Below the pieces are notes generated by a model. That model did not search any database. It was not told the origin of the DNA and worked only from the letters and a program-made list of their open reading frames with translations. Of a DNA stretch of 64,000 nt, positions 1 through 13,664 are shown in pieces (position 1 is the stretch's first letter; every line of letters begins with the position of its first letter). The translations under genes and the position numbers were made by a program. The stretch is from an uncultured Pseudobdellovibrionaceae bacterium (lineage in GTDB: Bacteria > Pseudomonadota > Alphaproteobacteria > Micavibrionales > Micavibrionaceae), in contig CAZBGS010000001.1 in assembly GCA_964491785.1 (NCBI GenBank), positions 232,661 to 296,660 of the forward strand, in the 5' to 3' direction.

Positions 1-344
1 AAATCTTACAAGTAATTTTAGCAAAGTTACTTTGCTATAAGGACTGCATAAATAGATCCTTTTAAAAATTCCCTTTTTCGGGGAAAACCTTATTCTTTTA
101 AATACAAAAAAAATGCTTTTGTTATTGTTTTTGGCGATGAATATATTCAATTCTTGATATTAAATTAATTTTTACTTATGAAACTCCCCGCAAGTCTCAT
201 TAAAACTAAAAAATGTAAATTTTGCTCTTGCATTGGTTCTGGAGATGGGGTAAATATTTATACACACACCCTCTATTACCGCCGTTTGTCCGGAGATCCG
301 AAAAGGTCTCCGGACCTTTTTTCTTTTTTTGCCGCAGGGGAAAA

Positions 345-421
345 TGGCGCGCCCGACAGGACTCGAACCTGTAACCGTCCGCTTAGAAGGCGGGTGCTCT
401 ATCCATTGAGCTACGGGCGCC
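345..421 (-). tRNA. tRNA-Arg (anticodon TCT)
   Basis: The reverse complement reads GCGCCCGTAGCTCAATGGATAGAGCACCCGCCTTCTAAGCGGACGG..TTCGAGTCCTGTCGGGCGCGCCA. It folds as a cloverleaf with a 7-bp acceptor stem, GCTC/GAGC D-stem, anticodon loop CTTCTAA, and encoded CCA. Confidence 0.85.
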
Positions 422-482
422 GGATCGTCGAGTTTGTTATAAGGGACAGGCAGATGAAAAAGCAACCGCCTTTGCATATATT

Positions 483-776
483 TTATACAGTTTGCAGGAA
501 ATGGCGAAAGTTATCTGTATAATTTCTTGGTACAATTTTTCTCGGGCTATGGCCGACAATCTCGTATTCCAGACCTTCCCTTCGAGCAAAAGCGGTCGCG
601 TCTTCAAGCTTTCGGAAATGCATCTTTACCTGGTTGTATGTATCGCCAGAGCCAAGCCATCCCATCAGCGGTTCCGGGAATCTTCCAGTAACCGGGATAT
701 ACTCCAGAACCCATCCTCGGTCTGTTCTGCCCGATTGCATGGGATTTTTGGCTGGCTTTGAAATGATTGCCTTCAT
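483..776 (-). CDS. NDUFS4-like complex I subunit family protein (PF04800-like, ~97 aa)
   Basis: The 97-aa ORF has the motif pattern typical of the small alphaproteobacterial NDUFS4-like proteins: MQSGRT...WVLEY, PLMGWLGSGDT, QVKMHF, and a C-terminal YEI. Confidence 0.55.
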   Translation of the reverse strand: MKAIISKPAKNPMQSGRTDRGWVLEYIPVTGRFPEPLMGWLGSGDTYNQVKMHFRKLEDATAFARREGLEYEIVGHSPRKIVPRNYTDNFRHFLQTV

Positions 777-1066
777 ATAAAATTATTTAGATCGATAATC
801 ATTCTTTTTCAGTTACTCGCAGCACGGATGTGCGGTTCATCGGTCATTTATAAAAATAGTACCCATTGTGTAGCAAGCTGCCAATTCGGTTGGGGGGATG
901 CTTTGGATCAGGTAAACGTAATTCATGGTTCTGTGGCTCTCCTCCGCTTTCGCTCCTCCGCAAAGCTTCGGAGCGCAGCCTCCGCCCTAACGGTTCCGTC
1001 CGTCTTCCGTCCCCTCCGCTTAAGCTCCGGCGGCGTAAGCCAGCCGAAGCCCGTAAGGGCGTAGGC

Positions 1067-1142
1067 TGGTCGGGGTGGAGGGATTCGAACCCCCGGCATC
1101 CTGCTCCCAAAGCAGGCGCGCTACCAGGCTGCGCTACACCCC
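1067..1142 (-). tRNA. tRNA-Pro (anticodon TGG)
   Basis: The reverse complement reads CGGGGTGTAGCGCAGCCTGGTAGCGCGCCTGCTTTGGGAGCAGG...GGTTCGAATCC.CCACCCCGACCA. The anticodon loop is TTTGGGA and CCA is encoded. Confidence 0.85.
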
Positions 1143-1171
1143 GTGGCCGTTTTGATTTACATGATAACTTG

Positions 1172-1636
1172 TCAGGGAGCAAGAACATTACCAAATAATT
1201 CATGGCGGACGGTATCCCCCGGCGCTATGCCGAGCTTGCGGGACTGGCCGCCGTTGATTTCCAGGACTGCGGCCACCGGCTCGCCCGAAGATATGGAAGT
1301 CAGGTCATGGGGCATCGCGTTCTCGTGAATTTTAACGATACGTCCATTTTGCCTGATAAAAATCATATCAAGGGGAATCAGGGTATTCTTCATCCAGAAG
1401 CCTGTCAGTTGCTCCTCCCCGAAAAAAAAGAGCATGCCCTTATCTTCGGGAAGGTTTTCGACGAACATCAGGCCTTGGGCTCTTTGCTCGGGGGTTAAGG
1501 CCAGATCGATATTGAAGTCTAATTGCCGTCCGTCGGAAGTGGATATCAGAAGAGAACCGTCCCCGCCCCTGCTTTCAGCCCGGGCGGGGAATGATATGGT
1601 AACCAGGAATAATGACAGAACCAACAATCTGAACAT
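1172..1636 (-). CDS. DUF192 (COG1430) family secreted protein
   Basis: An N-terminal signal peptide (MFRLLVLSLFLVTISFPARA) is followed by a conserved IPLDMIFI core typical of DUF192. Confidence 0.5.
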   Translation of the reverse strand: MFRLLVLSLFLVTISFPARAESRGGDGSLLISTSDGRQLDFNIDLALTPEQRAQGLMFVENLPEDKGMLFFFGEEQLTGFWMKNTLIPLDMIFIRQNGRIVKIHENAMPHDLTSISSGEPVAAVLEINGGQSRKLGIAPGDTVRHELFGNVLAP

Positions 1637-1672
1637 ATCTCTTCCCAGTAATTATTTTTCCAGCGCCCTTAA

Positions 1673-3067
1673 TCAGTGAACCGGGGCGGCGAAGAAATCG
1701 AAGAAAACCCACATGACCACCGAGGATACCGCCAATGTGAGAATCATAGCAGGGGTTCCTTTTCTGATCCAGAGGCCCGGAGTAATTGCCAGATCAGGGT
1801 TCTTTTCGTTCTTGGCCAGACGCTCGGATATGGTGACGATAAAGACGTTCGCCGTCGACCCCAAATGAGAGCCGTTACCGCCCATGCCCACGCCAATTGC
1901 GAGCGACCACCATAGCGGGGCGACGTTGATTCCCTGCGTTTCCATGCTCAGGATGATCGGGATCATCGCCGCGGTGAACGGGATGTTGTCGATCAGAGCG
2001 GAAAGCACTGCCGCCACCCACATCAGCAGGATGCATGAAAGCAGCAGATCCTGCTCGACGAAAGGCTGAAGATGGGCGCCCAGCCACATCAAGAACTGGC
2101 TATGTTCCACTCCGCCGACGAGAACGAACAGCGAGATGAAGAAAAGCAGTAGCGACAGTTCCACCTGCTCGAGATAGGTGTCGAGAACCAGCTTGTGCGA
2201 GATGACTACCAGAGAGGTCAGTCCAAGAACAGCGACGACCCATGCTTCCCAATGCAACGCTCCGTGGAAAATAAACAGGAGCACCATGCATCCGAGTACT
2301 GCCAGCGCCGTATACCATGTGAATTTGTCCTGGAGTTCCACACTGTCAGCAAACTTCAATTCGGCAGTTTTAACCGAAAGTTCTTTTTTGAAGAGGATTT
2401 TCAGTCCGAAAAGTATTGCTATCCAGGCGCAAAAGACGATTCCGCCCATGCGCAGGAAGAAAGTATTGAAGTCGATCCCGGCCGCCGAGCCGATCATAAG
2501 GTTCGGCGGATCGCCAACGAGAGTCGCCACGCCGCCGGTATCAGACAGGAGCGCCGCCGCCAGAAGATAAGGGATCGGGGAAACGCGCAGCACCTGACAG
2601 ATCAGGATGATCAGCGGGCCGAAGATAACCACAGTTGTGACGTTATCGAGAAGCAGGGAAATAACGGTTACCGCCGTTCCCATAAGCACCATCAGTGGAA
2701 ACTGCTTTCCCTTGCTAACCCTTGCTATCCAGTAGGCAAGAGCCTGAAAACCGCCGGTGGGAACCATTATCGAAACGATCGCCATCATGGCTCCGAGCAG
2801 GAAAACGACGTTCCAGTCAATGGCTTCAATCGCCAGTTCCGGATTATAAAAGCCGAAGATCTGACCGGTAATCACCATTACGGCAGCGCCAAGCATTGCC
2901 ACCTTGGTACGGTGAATATGGTGAACGCCTTCTGTAAAAATCGCGGCGAAGGTAACGGCAAGAATTATCGCCGAAACTATCATCGGGGTGTCCATAATCA
3001 TCTCTGTCAGACCATGCGACGCAGTATCTAGCCCCGCTGCTGCGTGCTGGGTATCTATGTGGTTCAT
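1673..3067 (-). CDS. ArsB/NhaD-superfamily (SLC13-like) anion permease, copy A
   Basis: The 464-aa protein is polytopic and carries the GDPPNLMIGSA signature of the ArsB/NhaD/CitMHS permease superfamily. It is about 85% identical to the ORF at 3744..5126. Confidence 0.7.
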   Translation of the reverse strand: MNHIDTQHAAAGLDTASHGLTEMIMDTPMIVSAIILAVTFAAIFTEGVHHIHRTKVAMLGAAVMVITGQIFGFYNPELAIEAIDWNVVFLLGAMMAIVSIMVPTGGFQALAYWIARVSKGKQFPLMVLMGTAVTVISLLLDNVTTVVIFGPLIILICQVLRVSPIPYLLAAALLSDTGGVATLVGDPPNLMIGSAAGIDFNTFFLRMGGIVFCAWIAILFGLKILFKKELSVKTAELKFADSVELQDKFTWYTALAVLGCMVLLFIFHGALHWEAWVVAVLGLTSLVVISHKLVLDTYLEQVELSLLLFFISLFVLVGGVEHSQFLMWLGAHLQPFVEQDLLLSCILLMWVAAVLSALIDNIPFTAAMIPIILSMETQGINVAPLWWSLAIGVGMGGNGSHLGSTANVFIVTISERLAKNEKNPDLAITPGLWIRKGTPAMILTLAVSSVVMWVFFDFFAAPVH

Positions 3068-3085
3068 TGCATTCGCCTCTGGGAT

Positions 3086-3583
3086 TTAATTATTCAAGTT
3101 TTTTTCTTCTTCGGCAGCCATATCAAGGAGAGCCTTGACTATCGACTGGGAGGAGATTATTCCGGCCATTTTCCTGTTTTCCTGGGATTCGACGACCGCC
3201 AGCGGGGAGTCGTATTTCACCAGCAGTCTGACACCTTCCCAAAGTGGCGTCTCGGGGGTCACAAGACGGAGATCCTTTACCGGTTCCATCACCTCTCCCA
3301 CCTTGACAAGCAACAGCTTGCGCAGTCGTTTGGCTATTCCAGGAGCGGCCCCGACCAGGTAGTCGAGCCTCAAGTCAAGGTTGACGCCATGGTCAACCGT
3401 GACATTTACAGGCAGCAGATTTTGCAAAATGTTCCGTAAGTGGAAAACACCGACGATCTCGTCATTCTCAACTACAGGAACGCCTCTGATATTGTACTCG
3501 TTGAACATAGCGAGCACATCGCCAATGGTCTTATCAGGATCAACCGAAATTACTTTCGTGATCATTGCTCTTTTACAAGGCAT
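3086..3583 (-). CDS. CBS-pair (Bateman domain) protein, copy A
   Basis: The 165-aa protein has two CBS motifs (residues ~6-57 and ~95-153). It lies 18 bp upstream of permease copy A and is about 75% identical to the ORF at 5147..5638. Confidence 0.7.
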   Translation of the reverse strand: MPCKRAMITKVISVDPDKTIGDVLAMFNEYNIRGVPVVENDEIVGVFHLRNILQNLLPVNVTVDHGVNLDLRLDYLVGAAPGIAKRLRKLLLVKVGEVMEPVKDLRLVTPETPLWEGVRLLVKYDSPLAVVESQENRKMAGIISSQSIVKALLDMAAEEEKNLNN

Positions 3584-3743
3584 TTCCCAACCTCTATTAT
3601 CAATGTCTTTACAATTCGGTGGGAACTATGCTCTCGATAATTCAGTTTTTCAACCGAAAACGGACAAAGAATTTCCAAAAACCGCCTTCCCGATACCAAG
3701 GAAAGCGGTTTGCTTAATGATTTCAGTTTATTGCACTGGCGGC

Positions 3744-5126
3744 CTAATGGATCGGAGAGGCAAAAAAGTCGAAAAAGACCCACATGATCAATGACGCCAC
3801 GACGAGCGTTAAAAGCATTGCCGGAGTACCTTTCCTTAACCACAATCCCGGAGTGATCGCCAGATCCGGGTTCATCTCGTTTTTGGCAAGGCGCTCGGAA
3901 ATGGTAACTATGAACACATTGGCGGTTGAACCGATATGCGAGCCGTTACCGCCAAGGCCTACGCCTACCGCCAGCGACCACCAAAGCGGGGTGACGTTGA
4001 TGCCCTGAGCTTCCATGCTCAGGATTATCGGGATCATCGCCGCCGTGAAAGGTATATTGTCAATCAATGCCGACAGCACAGCAGCCACCCACATCAGCAC
4101 AATTGCCGCCATCAACAGGTCGCTTTCGACAAAGGGCCTGATGTGCTGTCCGATCCACATCAGGAACTGGCTGTGCTCCACTCCACCGACAAGTACGAAC
4201 AGCGATACGAAAAATACCAGCAGCGATAGCTCCACTTTTTCAAGGTAATGGTCGAGAACCAGCTTGCGTGAGATTATCACCAGCGCCGTCAGGCCAAGAA
4301 CCGCAACGACCCATGCTTCCCACTCAAGCGCCCTGTGGAAGATAAACAGCAGCACCATACAGGCAAGGATGGCAATAGCGGCAAACCAGGTGAAGGGATC
4401 CTGAAGCTGGACGTCTTCAGCGAATTCCATCTTTTCGGATTTTCCAGACAGTTCTTTTCTGAACAAGACTTTCAAACCAACTATTATCGATAACCAGGCG
4501 CAAAAAACGATCCCGCCCATACGCAGGAAGAAGGTGTTGAAATCGATGTCCGCCGCCGAGCCGATCATCAGGTTTGGCGGGTCGCCGACCAGGGTCGCAA
4601 CGCCGCCGGTATCGGACAGCAGGGCAGCCGCCAGCAGGCTAGGTATCGGGGATATTTTAAGAACCTGACAGATCAATATTATCAGCGGCCCGAAAATGAC
4701 GACCGTCGTCACGTTGTCAAGCAGCAGGGAGAAAACCGTAACGGCCGTACCCATCATGATCATCAGCGCAAGATGGTTCCCCCGGCTCAAGCGCGCTATC
4801 AGGTACGCCACGGCCTGGAAACCTCCGGTGGGTATCATGATGGAAACGATCGCCATCATCGCTCCAAGAAGAAATACCACGTTCCAGTCTATCGCCTCGA
4901 TTGCCAGTTCGGGACTGTAAAAACCGAAAATCTGGCCGCTAATCACCATCATGCCGGCGCCGACCATTGCAACCTTGGTACGATGCATATGGTGCACGCC
5001 TTCGGTAAAGATCGCAGCAAAGGTGAATACCAGTACCAATGCCGACACTATCATTGGAGTATTCATAACTAGTTCCGCAACTCCATCATGAGACACCATC
5101 GCTATTTCGCCATGTGCATTACTCAT
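3744..5126 (-). CDS. ArsB/NhaD-superfamily (SLC13-like) anion permease, copy B
   Basis: The 460-aa paralogue of 1673..3067 shares the GDPPNLMIGSA motif and is collinear along its whole length. Confidence 0.7.
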   Translation of the reverse strand: MSNAHGEIAMVSHDGVAELVMNTPMIVSALVLVFTFAAIFTEGVHHMHRTKVAMVGAGMMVISGQIFGFYSPELAIEAIDWNVVFLLGAMMAIVSIMIPTGGFQAVAYLIARLSRGNHLALMIMMGTAVTVFSLLLDNVTTVVIFGPLIILICQVLKISPIPSLLAAALLSDTGGVATLVGDPPNLMIGSAADIDFNTFFLRMGGIVFCAWLSIIVGLKVLFRKELSGKSEKMEFAEDVQLQDPFTWFAAIAILACMVLLFIFHRALEWEAWVVAVLGLTALVIISRKLVLDHYLEKVELSLLVFFVSLFVLVGGVEHSQFLMWIGQHIRPFVESDLLMAAIVLMWVAAVLSALIDNIPFTAAMIPIILSMEAQGINVTPLWWSLAVGVGLGGNGSHIGSTANVFIVTISERLAKNEMNPDLAITPGLWLRKGTPAMLLTLVVASLIMWVFFDFFASPIH

Positions 5127-5146
5127 TTTTCCGTTTCCTTAAGTTA

Positions 5147-5638
5147 TTATTTCTCGTCGGCCATTTCGAGGAGGGCCTTTACGATGGACTGGGAAGTGAT
5201 GATCCCGGCCAGTTTCGTTCCATGAAGATCCTCTACCACCGCAAGTGGCGTATCGTATTTAACCAGCAGCCTTACGCCCTCCCATAATGGAGTTTCAGGA
5301 GTAACGAACCTTAAGTCCTCGGCCGATTCCATTACGTCGCGAACCTTTACCAGAAGCAGCTTGCGCAGCCTTTTGGCGACATCGGGTTCGACATCGACCA
5401 GATAGTCAAGGCGCAGATCGAGGTTAACACCGCGATCTACGTTGACGTTGACCGGCAACAGATTCTGGAGAAGATTCCGCAGGTGGAAAACGCCCAGTAT
5501 ATTGCCGTTTTCCATTACAGGGACTCCCCTTATTCCATATTCATTGAAGATTTTCAGCGCATCTTCGATTGTCTGTTCTGCCCGGACTGAGATCACATTT
5601 GTGATCATCGCTCTTCTGCATGGCATACTAAACCTCAT
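5147..5638 (-). CDS. CBS-pair (Bateman domain) protein, copy B
   Basis: The 163-aa paralogue of 3086..3583 heads the duplicated module. Confidence 0.7.
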   Translation of the reverse strand: MRFSMPCRRAMITNVISVRAEQTIEDALKIFNEYGIRGVPVMENGNILGVFHLRNLLQNLLPVNVNVDRGVNLDLRLDYLVDVEPDVAKRLRKLLLVKVRDVMESAEDLRFVTPETPLWEGVRLLVKYDTPLAVVEDLHGTKLAGIITSQSIVKALLEMADEK

Positions 5639-5669
5639 ATAATCGGGTAAATTTCGCGAAATATGCTCT

Positions 5670-5722
5670 TAATCGATTACGTTCTCAACTTTATTTTTTT
5701 CTGGTGATTATTTAATCGATTA
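5670..5722. promoter_or_regulatory. Putative operator: two perfect 10-bp palindromes TAATCGATTA spaced 43 bp apart, upstream of the CBS-permease operon
   Basis: TAATCGATTA occurs at 5670-5679 and again at 5713-5722 in the AT-rich spacer immediately 5' of the minus-strand CBS gene start (5638). The flanks are related (tgctcttaatcgattac / tttaatcgattactttgagagca). Confidence 0.4.
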
Positions 5723-5895
5723 CTTTGAGAGCAGAGAAAACACTAAATATTGTAGTAGCCGCATACTTTGAACTATATATCGGGGGATCAATTCCTAAAT
5801 GTGACAGGCGTCCTTTGCCGCGACATTCTGTAGCAGGCGCAGCTTCAGCCAGAGCCTTCTGCGATTAGACTGATTCAAACTGATCGTCCAGTGCT

Positions 5896-7656
5896 CTAAT
5901 CGGAAAGGCTGGTGTGGTGCAGGCGTGCGTAAATACCGTTTGAGGATATAAGCTCCTCATGGTTTCCACGCTCGACTATCTTCCCCTCCCCAAGAACCAG
6001 GATCTGGTCGGCCTTATTGATTGTGGACAGGCGATGGGCGATAACGAGTGTGGTGCGGCCCTTTTGCAGTTCGGCCAGAGTGGCCTGAATTGCGCGTTCG
6101 GATTCGTTATCAAGCGCGGAAGTCGCTTCATCGAGTAGCAAGATCGGTGCATCGCGCAAAATCGCCCGCGCAATTGCGATCCTCTGGCGCTGGCCTCCGG
6201 ATAATAAAACGCCGTCTTCTCCGGTCTTTGTCGCATAACCTTCAGGCAGTTCATTAATGAAGTCATGCGCCGAGGCCGCCTTAGCGGCGGCGATGATTTC
6301 CTGTTCCGATGCCCCGGATCTGCCATAGGCGATGTTGGCGCCTATGGTATCGTCAAATATGGTAATCTCCTGAGAGACCAGAGAAATGTTATTTCGCAGG
6401 CTTTCGAGGGTCACGTCGCGAATATCGGTGCCACCTATCATTACCCTGCCCTCCTGAACGTCATAAAAGCGGGGTATCAGGTTCATCAACGTGGTCTTGC
6501 CGCCGCCGGAAGGGCCGACGAGCGCGGTGACCTTGCCTTGCGGAATGACGCAGGAAACCCTGTCCAGCGCCTTGCGGTTATTCTCGCCCGCATACTGGAA
6601 AGATACGTCTTCGAACACTATCTCAGGCGCCCTGACCTTGAGAACTTGAGCGTCTTTTTTATCCACTATGGCGGGACGGAGATCGAGCATTTCGTAAACC
6701 CTGTCCGCCGCACCCAGGCCCATCTGCAAGGTATTATTAAGGGAGGCCAGTTTCTTCATCGGCTCATAGGCCAGAGTGAAGGCGGTGATGAACGAAATCA
6801 GCGCGCCGGCTGTCGTATTGCCAGCGTGAACCTGAAATCCGCCATAAACGATGATCGCAAAAACCACTATCCCCACGAGAAGTTCGTTGACCGGGGTTGA
6901 AAGCTGCCCTGTGCGAACGGATTTGATCATCAGGTTTTTTACGCATTCCACTGCGGTTGCAGTCCTTTTTCTTTCGTATTCCTCCATTCCATAGGCTTTT
7001 ACAAGCCTGATCCCCTGGAAAATCTGGGAAAGGCGGTCGGACAGGAAGCCCAAATTAATCTGAATATTGCCGGACACTTTTCGCAAACGTCTACCTATCC
7101 AGCCGACAAATCCGGCGGCCAGCGGGAATATCAGAAACGCCGCCAGCGAAAGCTTCCAGTCCTTGGCGAACATTACAGCGATCAGAAAGACCAGGGTCAG
7201 GAAGCTTTTGCCAAAACCGGTCAGGGTATCGGAGACTGCTATCCTCATTACGTTAACGTCGTTGACGACACGGGATACAAGCTGGCCGCTAGGGTTGGCA
7301 TGGAAAAATGTCAGGTCGAGTTCCATAAAGCGGGAAAAAAGGTCGTTCTGGATATCGGCCACTATCGACTGGCCGATTTTATTCATGAGGATTACGTGAA
7401 TATAAGTTGCAATACCGCGCAGAAAAAAGACACCGAAGAAAGCCGACGCTATCGGAAGCACAAGCCGCTGATCATCGCCATAAAGAACATCGTCAAGCAC
7501 AGGCTCGATCAACTGCGCGAAACCCGCCGTGGAAGCCGCAGCTACCAGCATGAAGAAGATGGCCCAGGCCAGATCCACCTTGTATGGCTTCAGGTAATCT
7601 GCCGTCATGCGGCGGAACATCTGAAGTGTGGAAGATTGAAGTCTCAGATTCGGCAT
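5896..7656 (-). CDS. ABC exporter, fused permease/ATPase (MsbA-like)
   Basis: The 586-aa protein has an N-terminal six-TM domain and a C-terminal nucleotide-binding domain with Walker A GPSGGGKTT, signature LSGGQRQRIAIARA, and Walker B ILLLDEATSALD. Confidence 0.85.
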   Translation of the reverse strand: MPNLRLQSSTLQMFRRMTADYLKPYKVDLAWAIFFMLVAAASTAGFAQLIEPVLDDVLYGDDQRLVLPIASAFFGVFFLRGIATYIHVILMNKIGQSIVADIQNDLFSRFMELDLTFFHANPSGQLVSRVVNDVNVMRIAVSDTLTGFGKSFLTLVFLIAVMFAKDWKLSLAAFLIFPLAAGFVGWIGRRLRKVSGNIQINLGFLSDRLSQIFQGIRLVKAYGMEEYERKRTATAVECVKNLMIKSVRTGQLSTPVNELLVGIVVFAIIVYGGFQVHAGNTTAGALISFITAFTLAYEPMKKLASLNNTLQMGLGAADRVYEMLDLRPAIVDKKDAQVLKVRAPEIVFEDVSFQYAGENNRKALDRVSCVIPQGKVTALVGPSGGGKTTLMNLIPRFYDVQEGRVMIGGTDIRDVTLESLRNNISLVSQEITIFDDTIGANIAYGRSGASEQEIIAAAKAASAHDFINELPEGYATKTGEDGVLLSGGQRQRIAIARAILRDAPILLLDEATSALDNESERAIQATLAELQKGRTTLVIAHRLSTINKADQILVLGEGKIVERGNHEELISSNGIYARLHHTSLSD

Positions 7657-7706
7657 CCTGATATAATCAATTAGGAAAGACCTTTTATAAAGGTTATAAA
7701 ATACTA

Positions 7707-8681
7707 ATGTCCAGCGCCCTGAAAGTAACCGTTTTTTTTACGTGCCTTTCCGCTTTTCTGTGGCCTTGCGGAACCGATGCTTTCGCAGAGGCTCCGGCGC
7801 TTCAGTTTCCTGTGGACTGTACACCCGGAGGCGATTGTTTTATCGAAAGTTTTGTCGATGTAGACATCAGAGAAGGATCGGTTGCCGATTACAGATGTTC
7901 CGGACTGGCGGACGATGGTTCGAACGGAATACGGATTACCTTCAGATCATTAAAGGAAAAACACCGTGTCTTTGCCGCTGCCGACGGAGTGGCGGCGCTG
8001 GTGCTTGACGGCGGAAGCGGAGGAAATACGCCTGCCGGCGCTTGCGGGAACGGCGTATTGCTGGTTCATGAAGGTGGCTGGGAGACCCGTTACTGCCATC
8101 TGCTCGCGGGAAGCGCCACGGTGAAGCCGGGTCAGTTCGTTACGAGTGGACAGGTTTTAGGTGTGGCCGGAGATTCAGGGCAGACAGACTGGCCGGCACT
8201 ACATTTTGATTTGCGGAACGGAAACGAGTTTTTCGATCCGTTTACCGGCAGATCTCAGTCGGTCGGATGCGGACTTGGAGGCAGGCCCTTGTGGCAGGAT
8301 GGCAAGGCAATCGACTATCTGCCGTTTGCGGTCATGGATTCCGGATTTGCGGCAGGCGTCCCTTCGGAAGAGGCCCTGAAGAAAGGAGTTGCCAGGCTGG
8401 TAGAGATACCGGGAAGCGTGGGCGAACTGGTTTTCTGGGGTCATTTAACAGGGGTAACAAAAGGAGATATGGTCACCCTGGCCGTTTACGATCCTTTTGG
8501 CACCGAGTTCATGAGCCTTAACGGAATGATAGAGGACAGCCGCAAGCGCAGGATAGCTTTCGTGAAACGGCCACTGGAAAAAGGGAACTGGTCACCCGGG
8601 ATATACAAAGGGTCGATCACAATCTCCCGACCGGGCATCCCGCCGGTCATCAGGACTACAAGCGTTGAGTTGAGGTATTGA
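7707..8681 (+). CDS. M23-family (LytM-like) peptidase, secreted
   Basis: A signal peptide is followed by an M23 core (HEGGWETRYCHL...GDSGQTDWPALHFDLRNG). Confidence 0.7.
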   Translation: MSSALKVTVFFTCLSAFLWPCGTDAFAEAPALQFPVDCTPGGDCFIESFVDVDIREGSVADYRCSGLADDGSNGIRITFRSLKEKHRVFAAADGVAALVLDGGSGGNTPAGACGNGVLLVHEGGWETRYCHLLAGSATVKPGQFVTSGQVLGVAGDSGQTDWPALHFDLRNGNEFFDPFTGRSQSVGCGLGGRPLWQDGKAIDYLPFAVMDSGFAAGVPSEEALKKGVARLVEIPGSVGELVFWGHLTGVTKGDMVTLAVYDPFGTEFMSLNGMIEDSRKRRIAFVKRPLEKGNWSPGIYKGSITISRPGIPPVIRTTSVELRY

Positions 8682-8699
8682 CCTGGATTTTCTCACTGT

Positions 8700-8724
8700 C
8701 TTCCCTCCCGCCGGGAGAGGGAAG
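8700..8724. repeat. Short copy of the dispersed GGGAGAGGG palindromic repeat, between convergent genes (likely bidirectional terminator)
   Basis: The sequence cttccctcccgccgggagagggaag is an inverted repeat sitting between the M23 peptidase stop and the HAD hydrolase stop. Confidence 0.5.
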
Positions 8725-8726
8725 TT

Positions 8727-9701
8727 TTATTCCGAATCATCGGAAGAGGATTTCACGGGGCGGCCGCGGCGGCGGACGTGTTTTTTGTGTTTCTTGTGTT
8801 TCCGGTCGGGCAGTGCCCTGCCCCAGATCAGCTTGTCGACAAGGTAGTTCGGTTTGACGTTGTTGTACTGGGCAACAAGGATGTTAAGCGCGTTATCGAT
8901 ATCCCGCATGGTTTTTGCGTTGCGGAACGATGAGAAATGCAGGCCGCCCCTGACGAGGCAGGTATCGATCCCGGCGGCCCATCCGCCCATGATATCGTGG
9001 CCCATCGTATCGCCGACCATCACCGTTTGTCCGGGGTATACGTTTTTTTCCTGCATCAGGCGCAGGCAATGTTGGTAAATGGGCTGATGCGGCTTTCCGA
9101 TGTAATGGACTACTCCGCCAAAATCCTGATAACGCCTTGCGATAAGACCGGGGCCCATTACATAGGTCGCGCCGAGCAGCGCCCTGCTGTCCGGATTTGA
9201 ACAGAAAGCTTTCAGTCCGCGCTTGACGGCAGTTCTCAGCGCCGGTTCGTAATCGGCGATAGAGAGAACCGGCGATTCCGAACCGAGGATCAGCAGAAAA
9301 TCAGCCTGATTTATATCGTCAACTATTTCAACTCCGGTGCCTTCGAGCATGGAGATGTCGCCACCGCGACTGAAGAGATAGCATCTCTTCTGGCCCAGAC
9401 CGCTGAACAATCCGCTGTTCTCGCTCAGGCCCTGCCAGATGAATTCGCCGCTGGATATGATTCTGTTGTAAAGGCTGGGGCCGATGCCGATCTGTTTCAG
9501 ACGCTGCTTGAGCTGGTCTTCGCGAAGAGAAGAGTTGGAAAGGACAATAATGAACTTTTTACGGTTTTTAAGTTCTTTCAGGCAATCAATAACTCCCTCA
9601 TACGGCTTGTTGCCATCATGCATTACACCCCACTGATCCAGGATGAACCCCATGTAGGTATCCGATATGTCTGAAATCCCCTGGCAGAACTTGGTTTTCA
9701 T
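8727..9701 (-). CDS. HAD-IIA family hydrolase
   Basis: The N-terminus (FILDQWGVMHDG) carries the HAD motif I DxxG, and the architecture is HAD-IIA-like. The C-terminus is an unusually basic tail (RKHKKHKKHVRRRGRP). Confidence 0.6.
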   Translation of the reverse strand: MKTKFCQGISDISDTYMGFILDQWGVMHDGNKPYEGVIDCLKELKNRKKFIIVLSNSSLREDQLKQRLKQIGIGPSLYNRIISSGEFIWQGLSENSGLFSGLGQKRCYLFSRGGDISMLEGTGVEIVDDINQADFLLILGSESPVLSIADYEPALRTAVKRGLKAFCSNPDSRALLGATYVMGPGLIARRYQDFGGVVHYIGKPHQPIYQHCLRLMQEKNVYPGQTVMVGDTMGHDIMGGWAAGIDTCLVRGGLHFSSFRNAKTMRDIDNALNILVAQYNNVKPNYLVDKLIWGRALPDRKHKKHKKHVRRRGRPVKSSSDDSE

Positions 9702-9848
9702 ATTTGCCGTTTAGTAAATTATTTTTCTCTTCGTTCGAACATGACAACAATATCGCCACATGTTCTATCCAATCAACGGCAAAATGCACAAAGTCAGGCA
9801 TTTATCAAACCATAAAACCCTACATGGCCCCCGTGTCAAAGCACCGGT

Positions 9849-12800
9849 TTACGAACCCGTTTTTATACTTTCTCTGGCCATTTTCGGCTCGCGGCCAGCT
9901 GCGGTGCACAGGAAGCAGTAGAGCTTGCCCACCTCGCTGGAAACGAAGGTCGAGGAAAGCAACGCGCCGTGGTCGTTGGCGATGGCCTGGTCGTACAGTT
10001 CCTCGAACTGACGCAGATAGCGCTGGACGTAAGTGCGGAATTCGGTGTCGGAGGCGAATTTCTTGCGAACCTTGTCGACCGGCATATTATCGCCAAGCTG
10101 GGCCAGACGGCGGGTAAAGGCGGATACATCGCCTTTCTGGAACGCTCGCCAGGTCTTCTCGGGAACCTCGCCGTCGAGATTGCGGGTAAGGTCGACCGAG
10201 AGCGAATGCAGGCTTTCGACAATGAATTTTGCCGAAGACAGGAAGGATTCCCGCTGCACCCTCGATTCCTCTTTCCGGATTTCCTCGGCATGCTGCCTTG
10301 CGTCTTCGGAAGCTTTGAAAAGAGAGGTTGACTGGCGGTGGAAAGCGGAAGTGGCCTGTTCCGTCGTTTCGATTGCCTTGGTCGACACGAGGATAAGACG
10401 ATCCGTCTCCTTGTCGAGTTTTTCCCGCGCGCCGTCGATTCTGACGGAGACATCGCCAGCGGTCTTGCCGACTTCGTCGAGCCTTGAGGTAAGAACAGAA
10501 ACCGCCTTGCCGATGGTGTCCGCGGAATCAGCCGAGGCCTGGGCGACGGCAGAGGCCTGATCCTTCAACTCCTTGCCGTAGTTCTGGCTTATCTGGAGCG
10601 AGGCTTTCATTTGCTCGGCTATTTCCCTCGACCTAACAGCAAAAGTATCGCCGGCCTTTTTCAGTTCGATCAGGGTTTCACTCGACTTGTCGAACAAGGC
10701 TTCAGCCTCGTTCTGAATGCGGGTGACGAGAAGGCTCGTCGATTCCACTGTATTTTGCGAGGCATCGTTGAGTTTTTCGCTATGGCGCAGTGCCTTGTCA
10801 CCGATCTCGTCGAATTTTGAGGCTATGCGTTCCGCAGTCTCGTCGACGCTTTCGGCGGACTTGCTGAATTCGGTGCCGGCGGCCTGAAGCTGAACCATGG
10901 CCTGGCCGATGGAAGCGGAAAGCTCGTGGAACTGGTCGTTGATGGCCTTCTGGATATTCTCGATTTTGAGCAGAGCCTGATCGGTCACCAGATGGATATC
11001 CGAAGACTGGTTGTCCAGAGAGGCTTCGATTTCCCGCATCTTCTCGCTGGCGGAACGGGCGGCGTCCTCGATCTCGCCCACGCGCTCCTGCAGGTGGTCG
11101 CTGGAAGATTTGAGGATCTGGGAGGCCTGCGACGATCCTTCCTTGAGGTCTTGCAAGCGTTCATCAAAGATGGAGCCGATGTGATCAAGCCTTGCAAGGC
11201 TGCTTTCGGCGGTGTCGCTGAATTCGCCGCGGAGTTTTTCGAAGCGTTCGGTCGCGGTTCCGGCGCGTTCGATAGCTTTTGTATAGACCGGCTCAATTTC
11301 GACCGCCGCGCTTTCAAGCGAACGGGTTACCGCGGTGATCGACGTTTCGGCCGCCGAGCAGCCTGATTTGAGAGTTACAATGCGGTCTTCAAGCGAAGCG
11401 TCAAGCTTTTCCAGTTTCTCCAGAGCTGTCGTGCTGACGTTGCCGATTTCGTCGCAACGCGAGGCGATAGTACCTTCAAGTCTGGCGATCTGCGATACCG
11501 CGTTTCCGGAGAGCCTGTTAAGGTTTTCGGCCTGGATTTCAAGAGCGCTGCGGACTGCCTCGATCTGGACAAGCGAATCCTTGACCTGAAGAGAAAGAGT
11601 ATCCTTCTGTTCGCTCATGTTGTTGTTGATCGCCCTGGCGTGGGCGGCGATCTGACCGGATAGGGTCGAGATCTCCTGCGCCTGGCCTCTTAGAATGGTG
11701 CGGATATGCTCGGCGCTTCCGGTGGCTTTTTCGCTGGCCTCGTTGAGGTCGGAGACGCGGCGGCGCAAGGTGTCCTCAATCTCTTCATGCTTGCCGTCGG
11801 CTTCGCTGACCGCAAGCATCATCGCCTTCAGTGGCTCTTCAAGGGCGGTGCGTACAGTTTCGATCCGGTCGGCAAGGCTTGCGGTGGAGACGCTGATTTT
11901 TTCAGCCTGCTCATCGACGGCGGAAGAAAGTTTGGCGACCTGGACATCGGTAAGTTTCGAGGCTTCCTCGATCTGGTCGCGGCTGCGTTCAAGCAGTTCG
12001 ACGATCGATTTGATATGTTCGACATTGCCCTCGCCGGAAGCGTTGAGTTCATCAATGTGCTTGCGGGCAGTCTGGATCAGTTCTTCGGCCTGCGTACGGG
12101 CGGACTGGGTGGACTTTTCGAGGCTATCGACGGCGCGCCGGACAGCGGAGCTTACTGTTTCCGCCCCTGACAGCGCGACGGAAAGCGCTTCGGTCAGCCT
12201 GTTGGAGACCGCTATTCCGGCTTCTTCAATTCCGCCTGCTTCTTTAGTTAGTATTTTTACTGTTTCTCGCAGCTTGTCGGCTTCCCCGCTGACACGGCCG
12301 GTTACGTCATCGGCCTGACCTGCGGCATAATCTGCCGCTTCCTTAAGTCTGTTTACGCTGGAGCTGACGGCATGCGCGATGTTCTCGGCCTGAACCGCGA
12401 CGGCCCTTGCACCCTGATCCAGCGCCTCGCGCTGATCCTGAATGGTTTCGCTGGAGCGCAGCATGGCTTCGACAACCTTGTCTGTCATATCCTCAAGACT
12501 GCTGACCTGATCATGAATTTGTTCGCCGATGCGGGAAGTTTCTTCGGCGACATGGTCGGTGGCTTCGGTGAGGCCTCTGGTATGTTCGTCAAACTCGCCG
12601 CTCAGTCCTTTAAGGCGTTCGGCGATCTTTTCGACGGCTTCATTGAGGTTTTCGTAGGTCTTCTGCAGGTCTGCCTCTATTCCGCCGATCTTGTCGCGGG
12701 CGGTGTCGGCGGCGGCCAGGATCTTGTCCGCTCCCTTGCAGAGAGAGTTTTCCATCTCTCCGGAGCGCTCAAGGACAGTTCTGGTGACCTCATCCCAGAC

Positions 12801-13664
12801 CTGGACGCCCTTTTCCGTGCTTTCGGCGATTTTCGAAGTTCTGGCCTCGATTTCCGAAGTGAGCGCTATCAGGCTGGCGGCGCGGGTTTGCAGGGTTTCG
12901 GCAAGTCGGTCGATATGGAATTCGGTCTTTTTCGATATGCCAACGAAATCCCGTATTTCGGCGCGCAGCCCCAGTCTTGCCCGGTGAATGGACTTCAGAA
13001 CCGCCTTGGAGCTTGCCGAGAGTTCGGCGGCCTGACGGCACAATAGTTCGATATCGCGGCTTATTATCCGCGAGCGCTCTTCCGAAGGGAAAATCAGGGA
13101 GTGCAGTTCCTTGCGCAATGATTCAGCGTACATGTGTACGTCCGACGTACGCTGGATATGTGAAAGCACCAGCCAGAAAAGCGCAGGAGGAGCCAGCATA
13201 CCGGCAATATAGCCGCCAAGCTCGTCCGGCTTGAGAGACAAAAGATCTCCAGAACGGAAAGCATAGAAAACACAATAGCTTACCCAGGCGATTGTAAGTA
13301 AAAGTCCAAAAGCCTGGCCGTATCTGTGGCTGGCGGGACGCTCAAGCAAAGGAGTGTTCATCGGGGCCAGCATAAGAACCGGTTCGGCGTCGGCTTCATC
13401 GGGATCCAGCTGATCTGGCCGGGTTGCGCGCAGTTCCTCGGTTGTTTTGTCTTCCGATGAAGTAATTCTTAGAGTTTTAAGCCCTGATGCCGTGTTAATC
13501 CTGAAACTTGTCTTGTTGTCACGGGTTTCCGGAAGCTGCGGCAAGCGGACGGATGTTCTGCTTTTTGTTTCTTCCGCGCCGGTCTCCGTGTGGGAAGAAT
13601 CGTCGGCGCCAGTATCCCCACCTGCCTGCCTTGCGGCTGACACTTTCTTCATTTGCAGCTCCAT
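9849..13664 (-). CDS. Large membrane-anchored coiled-coil protein (1271 aa), TipN-like architecture
   Basis: After a ~100-aa charged N-terminal region there are two hydrophobic segments (LLLTIAWVSYCVFYAF and IAGMLAPPALFWLVL). About 1000 aa of E/A/R/K/L-rich heptad-like sequence follows, ending in a distinct ~150-aa C-terminal domain. Confidence 0.6.
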   Translation of the reverse strand: MELQMKKVSAARQAGGDTGADDSSHTETGAEETKSRTSVRLPQLPETRDNKTSFRINTASGLKTLRITSSEDKTTEELRATRPDQLDPDEADAEPVLMLAPMNTPLLERPASHRYGQAFGLLLTIAWVSYCVFYAFRSGDLLSLKPDELGGYIAGMLAPPALFWLVLSHIQRTSDVHMYAESLRKELHSLIFPSEERSRIISRDIELLCRQAAELSASSKAVLKSIHRARLGLRAEIRDFVGISKKTEFHIDRLAETLQTRAASLIALTSEIEARTSKIAESTEKGVQVWDEVTRTVLERSGEMENSLCKGADKILAAADTARDKIGGIEADLQKTYENLNEAVEKIAERLKGLSGEFDEHTRGLTEATDHVAEETSRIGEQIHDQVSSLEDMTDKVVEAMLRSSETIQDQREALDQGARAVAVQAENIAHAVSSSVNRLKEAADYAAGQADDVTGRVSGEADKLRETVKILTKEAGGIEEAGIAVSNRLTEALSVALSGAETVSSAVRRAVDSLEKSTQSARTQAEELIQTARKHIDELNASGEGNVEHIKSIVELLERSRDQIEEASKLTDVQVAKLSSAVDEQAEKISVSTASLADRIETVRTALEEPLKAMMLAVSEADGKHEEIEDTLRRRVSDLNEASEKATGSAEHIRTILRGQAQEISTLSGQIAAHARAINNNMSEQKDTLSLQVKDSLVQIEAVRSALEIQAENLNRLSGNAVSQIARLEGTIASRCDEIGNVSTTALEKLEKLDASLEDRIVTLKSGCSAAETSITAVTRSLESAAVEIEPVYTKAIERAGTATERFEKLRGEFSDTAESSLARLDHIGSIFDERLQDLKEGSSQASQILKSSSDHLQERVGEIEDAARSASEKMREIEASLDNQSSDIHLVTDQALLKIENIQKAINDQFHELSASIGQAMVQLQAAGTEFSKSAESVDETAERIASKFDEIGDKALRHSEKLNDASQNTVESTSLLVTRIQNEAEALFDKSSETLIELKKAGDTFAVRSREIAEQMKASLQISQNYGKELKDQASAVAQASADSADTIGKAVSVLTSRLDEVGKTAGDVSVRIDGAREKLDKETDRLILVSTKAIETTEQATSAFHRQSTSLFKASEDARQHAEEIRKEESRVQRESFLSSAKFIVESLHSLSVDLTRNLDGEVPEKTWRAFQKGDVSAFTRRLAQLGDNMPVDKVRKKFASDTEFRTYVQRYLRQFEELYDQAIANDHGALLSSTFVSSEVGKLYCFLCTAAGREPKMARESIKTGS

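Follow-up and report, generated by a model that had tools for sequence, protein, structure and literature searches.

Several membrane transporters are governed by a small soluble protein: GlnK controls AmtB, and SbtB controls SbtA, by plugging the transporter in the membrane. Stand-alone proteins made of a CBS pair (Bateman module), such as DarB/CbpB, CBSX1/2, AcuB, MJ1225 and ST2348, act through binding partner proteins. A Bateman module is also found fused to membrane transporters in MgtE, ClC, CNNM/CorC and OpuA. Among the permeases of the ArsB/NhaD superfamily, the arsenite carrier ArsB of L. ferriphilum (LfArsB, PDB 10tp) was described by a cryo-electron microscopy structure in 2026, in which the As(OH)3 pocket is formed by N111, D112, N158, N337 and S380, the H+-coupling residue is D148, and the cytoplasmic linker between the two repeats spans R199-V221 (PMC13381914). 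Our literature search brought up no paper that connects CBS proteins to permeases of the ArsB/NhaD kind. Here, we describe such a gene pair in the window, that is, the whole stretch of 64,000 nucleotides (nt) that was analysed (an uncultured Pseudobdellovibrionaceae bacterium, GenBank assembly GCA_964491785.1, contig CAZBGS010000001.1, positions 232,661 to 296,660). It carries two tandem modules, each consisting of a gene for a CBS-pair protein (CBS-A, CBS-B) and a gene for a permease (permease-A, permease-B), and a single gene for a DUF192 protein follows module A. On balance, we think it probable that the locus arose when the first two genes of a CBS/permease/DUF192 cassette were duplicated in tandem in the distant past, and that in this cassette the CBS protein serves as a detachable sensor of the permease. 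The duplication itself is ordinary; the cassette behind it is uncharacterised and is what makes the locus interesting.

Results

Two Tandem Copies of a CBS-Permease Module

Four open reading frames (ORFs) on the minus strand occupy exactly the span 1673..5638 (Table 1), in agreement with an earlier note on this DNA that had described two consecutive copies of a gene pair at this place. The two permeases have the length of about 460 amino acids (aa) given there and are 81% identical by BLASTP (364/449), so that the close likeness stands and the figure of about 85% does not. The CBS proteins are identical at 119 of 159 positions, which is the 75% that had been claimed, and the GDPPN motif is indeed found in both permeases. 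A length of about 165 aa holds for CBS-A and probably not for CBS-B. The longest CBS-B ORF (5147..5638) has a second ATG at 5626, and this is most likely the true start, giving 159 aa, because the family-wide M-P-C beginning, a GAGG sequence 7-8 nt upstream and the onset of the DNA repeat are all found there.

At the DNA level, the two modules form a repeat of about 1.9 kb at 72% identity (blastn), that does not extend beyond the CBS start on one side and the permease stop on the other; it begins exactly at 3583/5626 and finishes near the permease stops. The regions 5' of the two modules share no similarity, and neither do the module flanks as a whole. Judged from these alignments, the similarity of the modules is not a matter of chance. 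An assembly artefact is an unlikely source of the duplication, because L004, an independent assembly from Logan, matches positions 1108..13000 of the window at 100% identity, both junctions included.

Table 1. Features of the duplicated locus and of related loci (positions refer to the window unless a locus is named).
Feature	Position	Strand	Basis or remark
CBS-B, stand-alone CBS-pair (Bateman) protein, 159 aa	5147..5626	minus	ORF, Pfam CBS x2, MPC start
Permease-B, ArsB/NhaD (CitMHS) superfamily, 460 aa	3744..5126	minus	ORF, Pfam, NCBIfam
CBS-A, stand-alone CBS-pair protein, 165 aa	3086..3583	minus	ORF, Pfam, AlphaFold2 model, Foldseek
Permease-A, 464 aa	1673..3067	minus	ORF, Pfam, NCBIfam, AlphaFold2 model
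DUF192 (UPF0127/COG1430) protein, 154 aa, N-terminal signal peptide	1172..1636	minus	Pfam PF02643, E 7e-34
Terminator-like hairpin, 13-bp stem then U-run, in 160-nt permease-B/CBS-A spacer	3679..3711	minus	Pattern scan and RNA fold
Sigma-70-like promoter match 5' of CBS-A, TTGAAA-17-CATAGT	3625..3653	minus	Consensus match only
Sigma-70-like promoter match 5' of CBS-B, TTGAGA-17-CATATT	5660..5688	minus	Consensus match only
tRNA-Pro	1067..1143		
tRNA-Arg	345..420		
M23 peptidase	7707..8681	plus	
1,271-aa ORF	9849..13664	minus	No significant Pfam domain
Second permease type	L095 4530..5894		Slot after CBS
Second permease type	L100 1166..2533		Slot after CBS
Second permease type	L104 4504..5868		Slot after CBS
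Second permease type	L107 370..1716		Slot after CBS
Two CBS paralogues, one permease, DUF192	L001 7391..10495		GCA_964498755.1
Duplicate permeases	L044 4966..7768		CBS absent
Duplicate permeases	L063 4521..7323		CBS absent
Duplicate permeases	L073 4518..7323		CBS absent
ORF directly 5' of a permease	L031 4015..5985		CBS absent
ECF sigma and NrsF anti-sigma pair	L090 6180..7391		
ECF sigma and NrsF anti-sigma pair	L092 6071..7302		

Age of the Duplication and Selection on the Copies

The permease pair shows a dN (nonsynonymous substitutions per site) of 0.131, a saturated dS (synonymous substitutions per site) of 1.86 and a dN/dS of 0.07, and dS of the CBS pair is saturated past estimation. Neighbour-joining (NJ) trees with bootstrap were built for the CBS family and for the permeases. 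In the CBS tree, CBS-B groups with the metagenomic protein P0004 (bootstrap 99) and CBS-A with P0002 (bootstrap 80), and these four proteins form one clade (bootstrap 99) without the CBS proteins of the related loci L001 and L005. The gene for P0004 (locus L085) stands after an ABC transporter gene 87% identical to that of the window and is followed by a B-like permease gene, and the P0002 contig holds an A-like CBS gene, an A-like permease gene and DUF192, in this order. Since each CBS copy has its own orthologue elsewhere, the duplication predates lineage splits. The duplication is thus old and was retained, as the earlier note had supposed, and the copies are under purifying selection.

Permease-B is the more divergent copy, being 74-80% identical to other permeases, as compared with 78-86% for permease-A. 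Lineage-specific changes in permease-B and permease-A number 47 and 18 (p = 3e-4) or 40 and 20 (p = 0.01), with L005 or L001 as the outgroup, respectively. These counts fit a permease-B that evolved about twice as fast; they also fit an older duplication whose CBS genes were homogenised long ago.

The CBS-Pair Protein Family

Each CBS protein contains two PF00571 stretches (75.8 and 80.3 bits, where the cut-off is 24) and no signal peptide. The AlphaFold2 (AF2) model of CBS-A, with a predicted local distance difference test score (pLDDT) of 82, is an ordinary Bateman module, and Foldseek returned for it only generic stand-alone CBS pairs (ST2348, MJ1225, CBSX2, AcuB and DarB, at E 1e-11 to 1e-9). 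A single-sequence search found 14 relatives only, and a profile search about 50 clusters, after which the score fell sharply to generic four-CBS archaeal proteins. When 1.84 billion protein representatives were scanned with a hidden Markov model (HMM) of the family, 61 were matched at E<1e-30; at the looser threshold of E<1e-24, the full-length proteins (146-176 aa) numbered about 100. No homologue was found in annotated plasmids. The CBS proteins belong to a small, unnamed and distinctive family that is encoded only inside the CBS/permease/DUF192 cassette.

An alignment of 140 members shows a signature consisting of M1 with C3 (77%), G45, F47, L57-P58 (99%), E116, P127, G141, T/S144, Q146 and S147, and an insert between the two CBS motifs that ends in G-A-A-P-G-I/V-A-K-R-L. 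CBS-A has the consensus ending GAAPGIAKRL; CBS-B (VEPDVAKRL) and its orthologue (IEPEVAQRL) have an acidic variant. Residues 60-79 of the CBS-A insert have a pLDDT below 50, that is, they are predicted to be disordered though conserved, a combination that would be typical of an element that binds a partner. Neither CBS motif of the 140 members has the canonical ribose-binding Asp of the pattern G-h-h-T/S-x-x-D/N, position 51 being variable and position 147 being Ser (73%) or Thr (11%), where these positions were assigned by sequence and model and not from a ligand complex. Nucleotide gating, which had been suggested for the pair, is therefore not indicated, and a ligand would probably be bound other than in the canonical adenosine mode. 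We also note that Cys3 in the M-P-C start (about 3575..3577 of the window in CBS-A) may be a redox- or metal-sensing residue.

Family, Fold and Pocket of the Permeases

Both permeases match the Pfam model CitMHS (PF03600) at 241.7 and 237.6 bits, against a cut-off of 31.9 (E 1e-71 and 3e-70), and ArsB weakly too; PF03600 is a broad domain model, and a match to it is no proof of citrate-metal transport. The permease family comprises 7,565 matches at E<1e-20, with 65-75% identity across Alpha-, Beta- and Gammaproteobacteria, Campylobacterota and Aquificae, and bears conflicting labels in the sources (arsenic transporter, citrate transporter, SLC13 permease, NhaD/arsenite permease-like). Neither permease reached the cut-off of any curated family in NCBIfam. 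The best match there, MamN (NF040989), was rejected at 163 and 162 bits against 500: the match is full-length, but the score is below the cut-off, and no mam (magnetosome) genes were seen near the locus. The DASS/SLC13 model (TIGR00785) was likewise rejected at 57 and 64 bits against 198.6, the hairpin tips reading L-D-N-V-T-T and I-D-N-I-P-F and not SNT. The ArsB models gave 61.4 bits against 457 (NF011980), 49.7 against 415 (TIGR00935) and 40.3 against 760 (NF033877). Among the matches in the libraries searched, there was no NhaD-specific model, and the only NhaD label was a generic JGI COG name.

The AF2 model of permease-A (pLDDT 84) has ArsB 10tp as its best solved fold (TM 0.79/0.85, 20% identity), followed by VcINDY and SLC13 proteins. 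Because of these matches, we assign the permease to the elevator-type ion-transporter superfamily; its predicted fold is an ArsB/DASS-like elevator. We mapped the LfArsB site onto the window permease through a phmmer alignment to 10tp. N111, N337, S380, A382 and D148 are conserved as N142, N361, S404, A406 and D176, respectively. Where LfArsB has D112 and N158, the window permease has V143 and D186, in this order, and at each of its hairpin tips there is an Asp that is extra as compared with LfArsB (D141 and D360). Within the permease family, D141, D186 and D360 are invariant and D176 is nearly so. No arsR, arsC, arsA or arsD gene was found near the locus, where the neighbours encode an ABC transporter, an M23 peptidase, a HAD hydrolase, DUF192, tRNAs and NDUFS4. 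We dismissed an identity as ArsB on the grounds of family scores that are far too low, the two changed pocket residues, the two added Asp and the missing ars context. The Asp-rich core weakly suggests a cation or a cation/H+-coupled substrate, not a free anion or As(OH)3. It would be compatible with NhaD Na+/H+ antiporters, for which it is not diagnostic. An anion carrier, as had been proposed earlier, finds no support in a pocket with four conserved Asp and in scores below the cut-off of every named family.

The hairpin and loop motifs of the transport core are the same in permease-A and permease-B. Their differences concentrate in residues 1-40 and 221-260, the latter of which align with R199-V221 of LfArsB and form, by homology, the cytoplasmic inter-repeat linker.

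Tandem or nearby duplicate permease genes were also seen in loci that lack CBS, in a Micavibrio metagenome-assembled genome (MAG) and in Pseudomonadales MAGs (L044, L063, L073 and L072), so that permease duplication is recurrent. Eleven CBS-less loci, all gammaproteobacterial (L031 and 10 others), have an ORF of 602-675 aa directly 5' of the permease gene, whose product is, to judge from its N-terminus, apparently membrane-embedded.

Gene Context of the CBS and Permease Families

The stop of each CBS gene is separated from the permease start by 18 nt (module A) or 20 nt (module B), with a ribosome-binding site in each gap, and CBS-A and permease-A share one reading frame. We surveyed 80 species-representative permease loci, 65 of which had a scored CBS gene or flanks of 700 bp or more to the left and right, the other 15 being unscorable. 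A CBS gene of the family adjoins the permease gene in 14. In alphaproteobacterial MAGs, CBS lies 5' of the permease, and the order is permease then CBS in Accumulibacter, Chromatiaceae and Thiohalocapsa (L008, L009, L014, L015, L020) and in L094. All CBS-linked permeases fall into basal subclades of the permease NJ tree, and the unlinked ones form one large clade. The conservation of the pair in both orders and in three proteobacterial classes argues for a functional link between CBS and permease, and the tracking of permease subclades by CBS supports it in combination with this linkage. At the gene level, the association between CBS protein and transporter that had been claimed is therefore upheld.

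The earlier note had described a two-gene module. DUF192 lies 3' of the permease in L001, L003, L005, L007, L016, L069 and the P0002 contig, and by this conservation the unit has three genes, CBS, permease and a periplasmic DUF192 protein. The L001 locus itself carries two tandem CBS paralogues with one permease and DUF192; this CBS-CBS-permease order may be another outcome of duplication or may mean that one permease was lost.

A metagenome scan with the CBS motif AAPG[IV]AKRL, based on a narrow alignment, gave 33 loci, of which 27 were scorable. In four of these, CBS is followed by a second, distant permease of the ArsB/NhaD type, which is 31-37% identical to the window permeases and 61-72% identical among its members and which has N-N at the second hairpin tip where the window type has D-N (Table 1). 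No CBS ORF was called in L100, yet tblastn shows the same CBS/second-permease arrangement there. DUF192, with a lipobox, follows the second permease in L100, L104 and L107, and none was detected in L095; L096 ends inside the second permease. We count this second permease type in the same CBS/DUF192 slot in favour of the CBS-permease link.

Signals and the DUF192 Gene

The window DUF192 protein scores 116.4 bits against the Pfam cut-off of 27 and has the signal peptide MFRLLVLSLFLVTISFPARA. Its gene begins 36 nt past permease-A and, unlike the other two, exists in a single copy. Among relatives, no other gene accompanies the CBS family as constantly. The DUF192 homologues all bear a signal peptide or a lipobox, and the Novosphingobium member Saro_0823 was detected in the periplasm (PMC3608174). 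The PDB holds two crystal structures of homologues, 3pjy and 3m7a, without an assigned function, and we found no paper in the literature that assigns a function to DUF192.

We infer a terminator in the spacer between the modules from a hairpin whose 13-bp stem is perfect, the z-score of the whole 86-nt stretch being not significant. A terminator hairpin was looked for in the 36-nt gap between permease-A and DUF192, and none was found. The promoter match of CBS-B lies in a 269-nt gap following the ABC transporter gene. Because of the short gaps, the hairpin-free gap before DUF192 and the spacer hairpin with its promoter-like site, the locus can be read as two putative transcription units, CBS-B with permease-B and, beyond the terminator, CBS-A with permease-A and DUF192. 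A search of positions 1..8000 for Rfam elements returned just the two tRNAs, and no riboswitch or RNA leader.

Neighbouring Genes

Nearly all alphaproteobacterial loci share a gene block consisting of HAD, ABC (MsbA-like), sometimes a 270-aa gene, CBS, an optional permease, DUF192, ECF sigma, NrsF and NDUFS4. Most loci from the CBS-motif scan belong to this block, and L095, L103 and L117 have other flanks. In most relatives, the ECF sigma/NrsF anti-sigma pair fills the interval from DUF192 to the NDUFS4-like gene. The window lacks this pair; tRNA-Pro takes its place there, and tRNA-Arg lies just past the NDUFS4-like gene. Flanked by the genes of the HAD hydrolase and the ABC transporter, the M23 peptidase gene runs in the opposite direction, in a slot that is variable within the conserved synteny (empty in L001, a patatin gene in L090). 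The 1,271-aa ORF has counterparts in L001, L090 and L092 (1,251-1,274 aa) that occupy the same place in the synteny and are also Pfam-negative.

Discussion

The explanation that we favour on balance is that the first two genes of the cassette were duplicated in tandem long ago and that the CBS protein is a sensor separate from the permease on which it acts. The cytoplasmic CBS protein would most likely work as a dimer that attaches to the cytoplasmic face of the permease, itself dimeric, and so tunes it, by analogy with GlnK-AmtB, SbtB-SbtA, MgtE, ClC and CNNM. Dimeric working units fit the observation that both CBS (L001) and permease (L044, L063, L073) are prone to duplication, and two CBS genes per one permease in L001 are consistent with a CBS dimer. 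Permease-A and permease-B probably carry the same substrate, because their transport core is identical. The two modules may then be differently regulated isoforms, since each has a promoter, an N-terminal tail, a cytoplasmic linker and a CBS insert unlike those of the other. Sub-functionalisation, as suggested by the earlier note, is plausible in view of the hairpin and promoter-like site between the modules, the roughly twofold rate of permease-B and the differences in tail and linker.

Several observations weigh against this explanation. Of the 65 permease loci whose flanks sufficed, 51 lack a CBS neighbour. In the metagenome scan, the gene next after CBS is DUF192 and not a permease in 23 of the 27 scorable loci, which makes this the commonest arrangement in the wider family, so that CBS has a role for which an adjacent permease is not required. 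Much of the alphaproteobacterial adjacency lies in one syntenic block, and part of the linkage signal is therefore shared ancestry. CBS-linked and unlinked permeases can be told apart at only three positions, all hydrophobic, and there is no evident sign of a surface dedicated to docking. The regions in which permease-A and permease-B differ are variable throughout the family, for which reason the divergence of the linker is only compatible with, and not diagnostic of, co-divergence with specific partners. Of the trees that had been suggested for dating, the CBS tree served its purpose (bootstraps 80-99) and the permease tree did not resolve the close relatives (bootstraps 3-43); both the date of the duplication and the fast rate of permease-B thus rest on the CBS tree.

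The main rival explanation, which we consider rather unlikely, is that the real partner of CBS is the DUF192 product or the process it serves, the permease being an optional insert and CBS having been duplicated merely as its neighbour. It draws on the 23 loci just mentioned, in which the CBS stop and the DUF192 start often overlap by 1-4 nt, on L090 and L092, which have the synteny of the window with CBS directly followed by DUF192 and the permease absent, and on L103 and L117, where the CBS-DUF192 pair stands amid other flanking genes. However, CBS has no signal peptide and the DUF192 homologues are exported, so that direct contact would need a membrane partner because the compartments differ. 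Moreover, in the beta- and gammaproteobacterial loci CBS follows the permease and DUF192 is absent, both CBS copies of the window are kept under purifying selection beside their own permease, and two deeply diverged permease types occupy the same slot.

It is quite improbable that the adjacency of CBS and permease is inherited synteny without a functional link, so that CBS would regulate something unrelated and independent neighbours were copied together. Such a history would agree with the confinement of nearly all alphaproteobacterial loci to the one block and with the few positions specific to CBS-linked permeases, but the pair recurs outside this block, in reverse order in beta- and gammaproteobacteria, the intergenic gaps between CBS and permease are very short, and the CBS family is restricted to the cassette context.

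We give as little credence to a second module that came from a related lineage by lateral transfer, with insertion in tandem, or to a junction that is a chimera of the assembly. Permease-A is 81% identical to permease-B but 86% identical to P0016 and P0017, which come from other genomes, the flanks of the modules share no similarity, and on the P0002 contig no gene is called in the 300 nt 5' of the A-like CBS gene, all of which would suit such an origin. The clade that unites CBS-A and CBS-B to the exclusion of L001 and L005, the similar G+C content of both modules, the same junction in the independent assembly and the B-like module of L085 at the same position after an ABC transporter gene in another organism speak against it. 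An identity of the permeases as arsenite/antimonite efflux pumps of the ArsB type, regulated by CBS, is extremely improbable, since the best solved structural match, the weak Pfam and NCBIfam matches and the conserved N111, N337, S380 and D148 are outweighed by ArsB scores of 45-61 bits against cut-offs of 415-457, by the low identity and altered pocket, by the lack of ars genes and by the conservation of the family across phyla in housekeeping contexts.

A bolder proposal, which we regard as unlikely, extends the favoured explanation to all three genes: CBS, permease and DUF192 would form a three-compartment transport system, with DUF192 as the periplasmic partner and the Bateman sensor as the cytoplasmic gate. 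TRAP transporters share the elevator fold and use a binding protein, to which the DUF192 partner would be loosely analogous. Under this proposal, the recurrent tandem duplication of permeases (the window, L044, L063 and L073) could reflect heterodimers. If it were true, it would give DUF192/UPF0127 its first function, and the ion-transporter superfamily its first carrier with a separately encoded CBS-pair subunit. Among Alphaproteobacteria the cassette is widespread, and its CBS-permease pair is present in Accumulibacter and in purple sulfur bacteria as well. The cassette offers a testable lead on DUF192/UPF0127, a family with two crystal structures and no assigned function, and on a very highly conserved, uncharacterised permease family, and it suggests a new coupling of a Bateman sensor to a secondary transporter, through a separate subunit instead of a fused domain.

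With respect to known systems, the window permeases have in common with LfArsB the inverted-repeat elevator fold, the HP1-L1/HP2-L2 motifs, the hairpin-tip Asn, S380 and D148, and they differ from it in overall sequence, in the residues at D112 and N158, in the two extra Asp and in the lack of an ars operon. The CBS proteins resemble DarB/CbpB, CBSX1/2, AcuB, MJ1225 and ST2348 in fold and size; they are only 15-25% identical to these and have their own MPC/LLP/GAAPGIAKRL signature and another gene context. As in MgtE, ClC, CNNM/CorC and OpuA, a Bateman module is tied to a membrane transporter as its presumed allosteric regulator, but here it is a separate polypeptide, the transporter has an elevator-type fold and the ribose-binding Asp is absent. 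Permeases of the ion-transporter superfamily with TrkA_C (RCK_C) in the central loop, one of which is encoded near L094, also place a regulatory module at the central cytoplasmic linker, in their case a fused RCK_C pair where the window has a separate CBS pair. The closest parallel in gene organisation is with GlnK-AmtB and SbtB-SbtA, in which the gene of a small soluble sensor lies beside the transporter gene in one operon and this linkage is conserved across phyla. Their sensor is a trimer of the PII fold, whereas the one proposed here is a CBS pair, accompanied by a periplasmic DUF192 protein; a conserved operon linkage of sensor and transporter of the GlnK-AmtB kind is likewise found for the CBS-permease pair.

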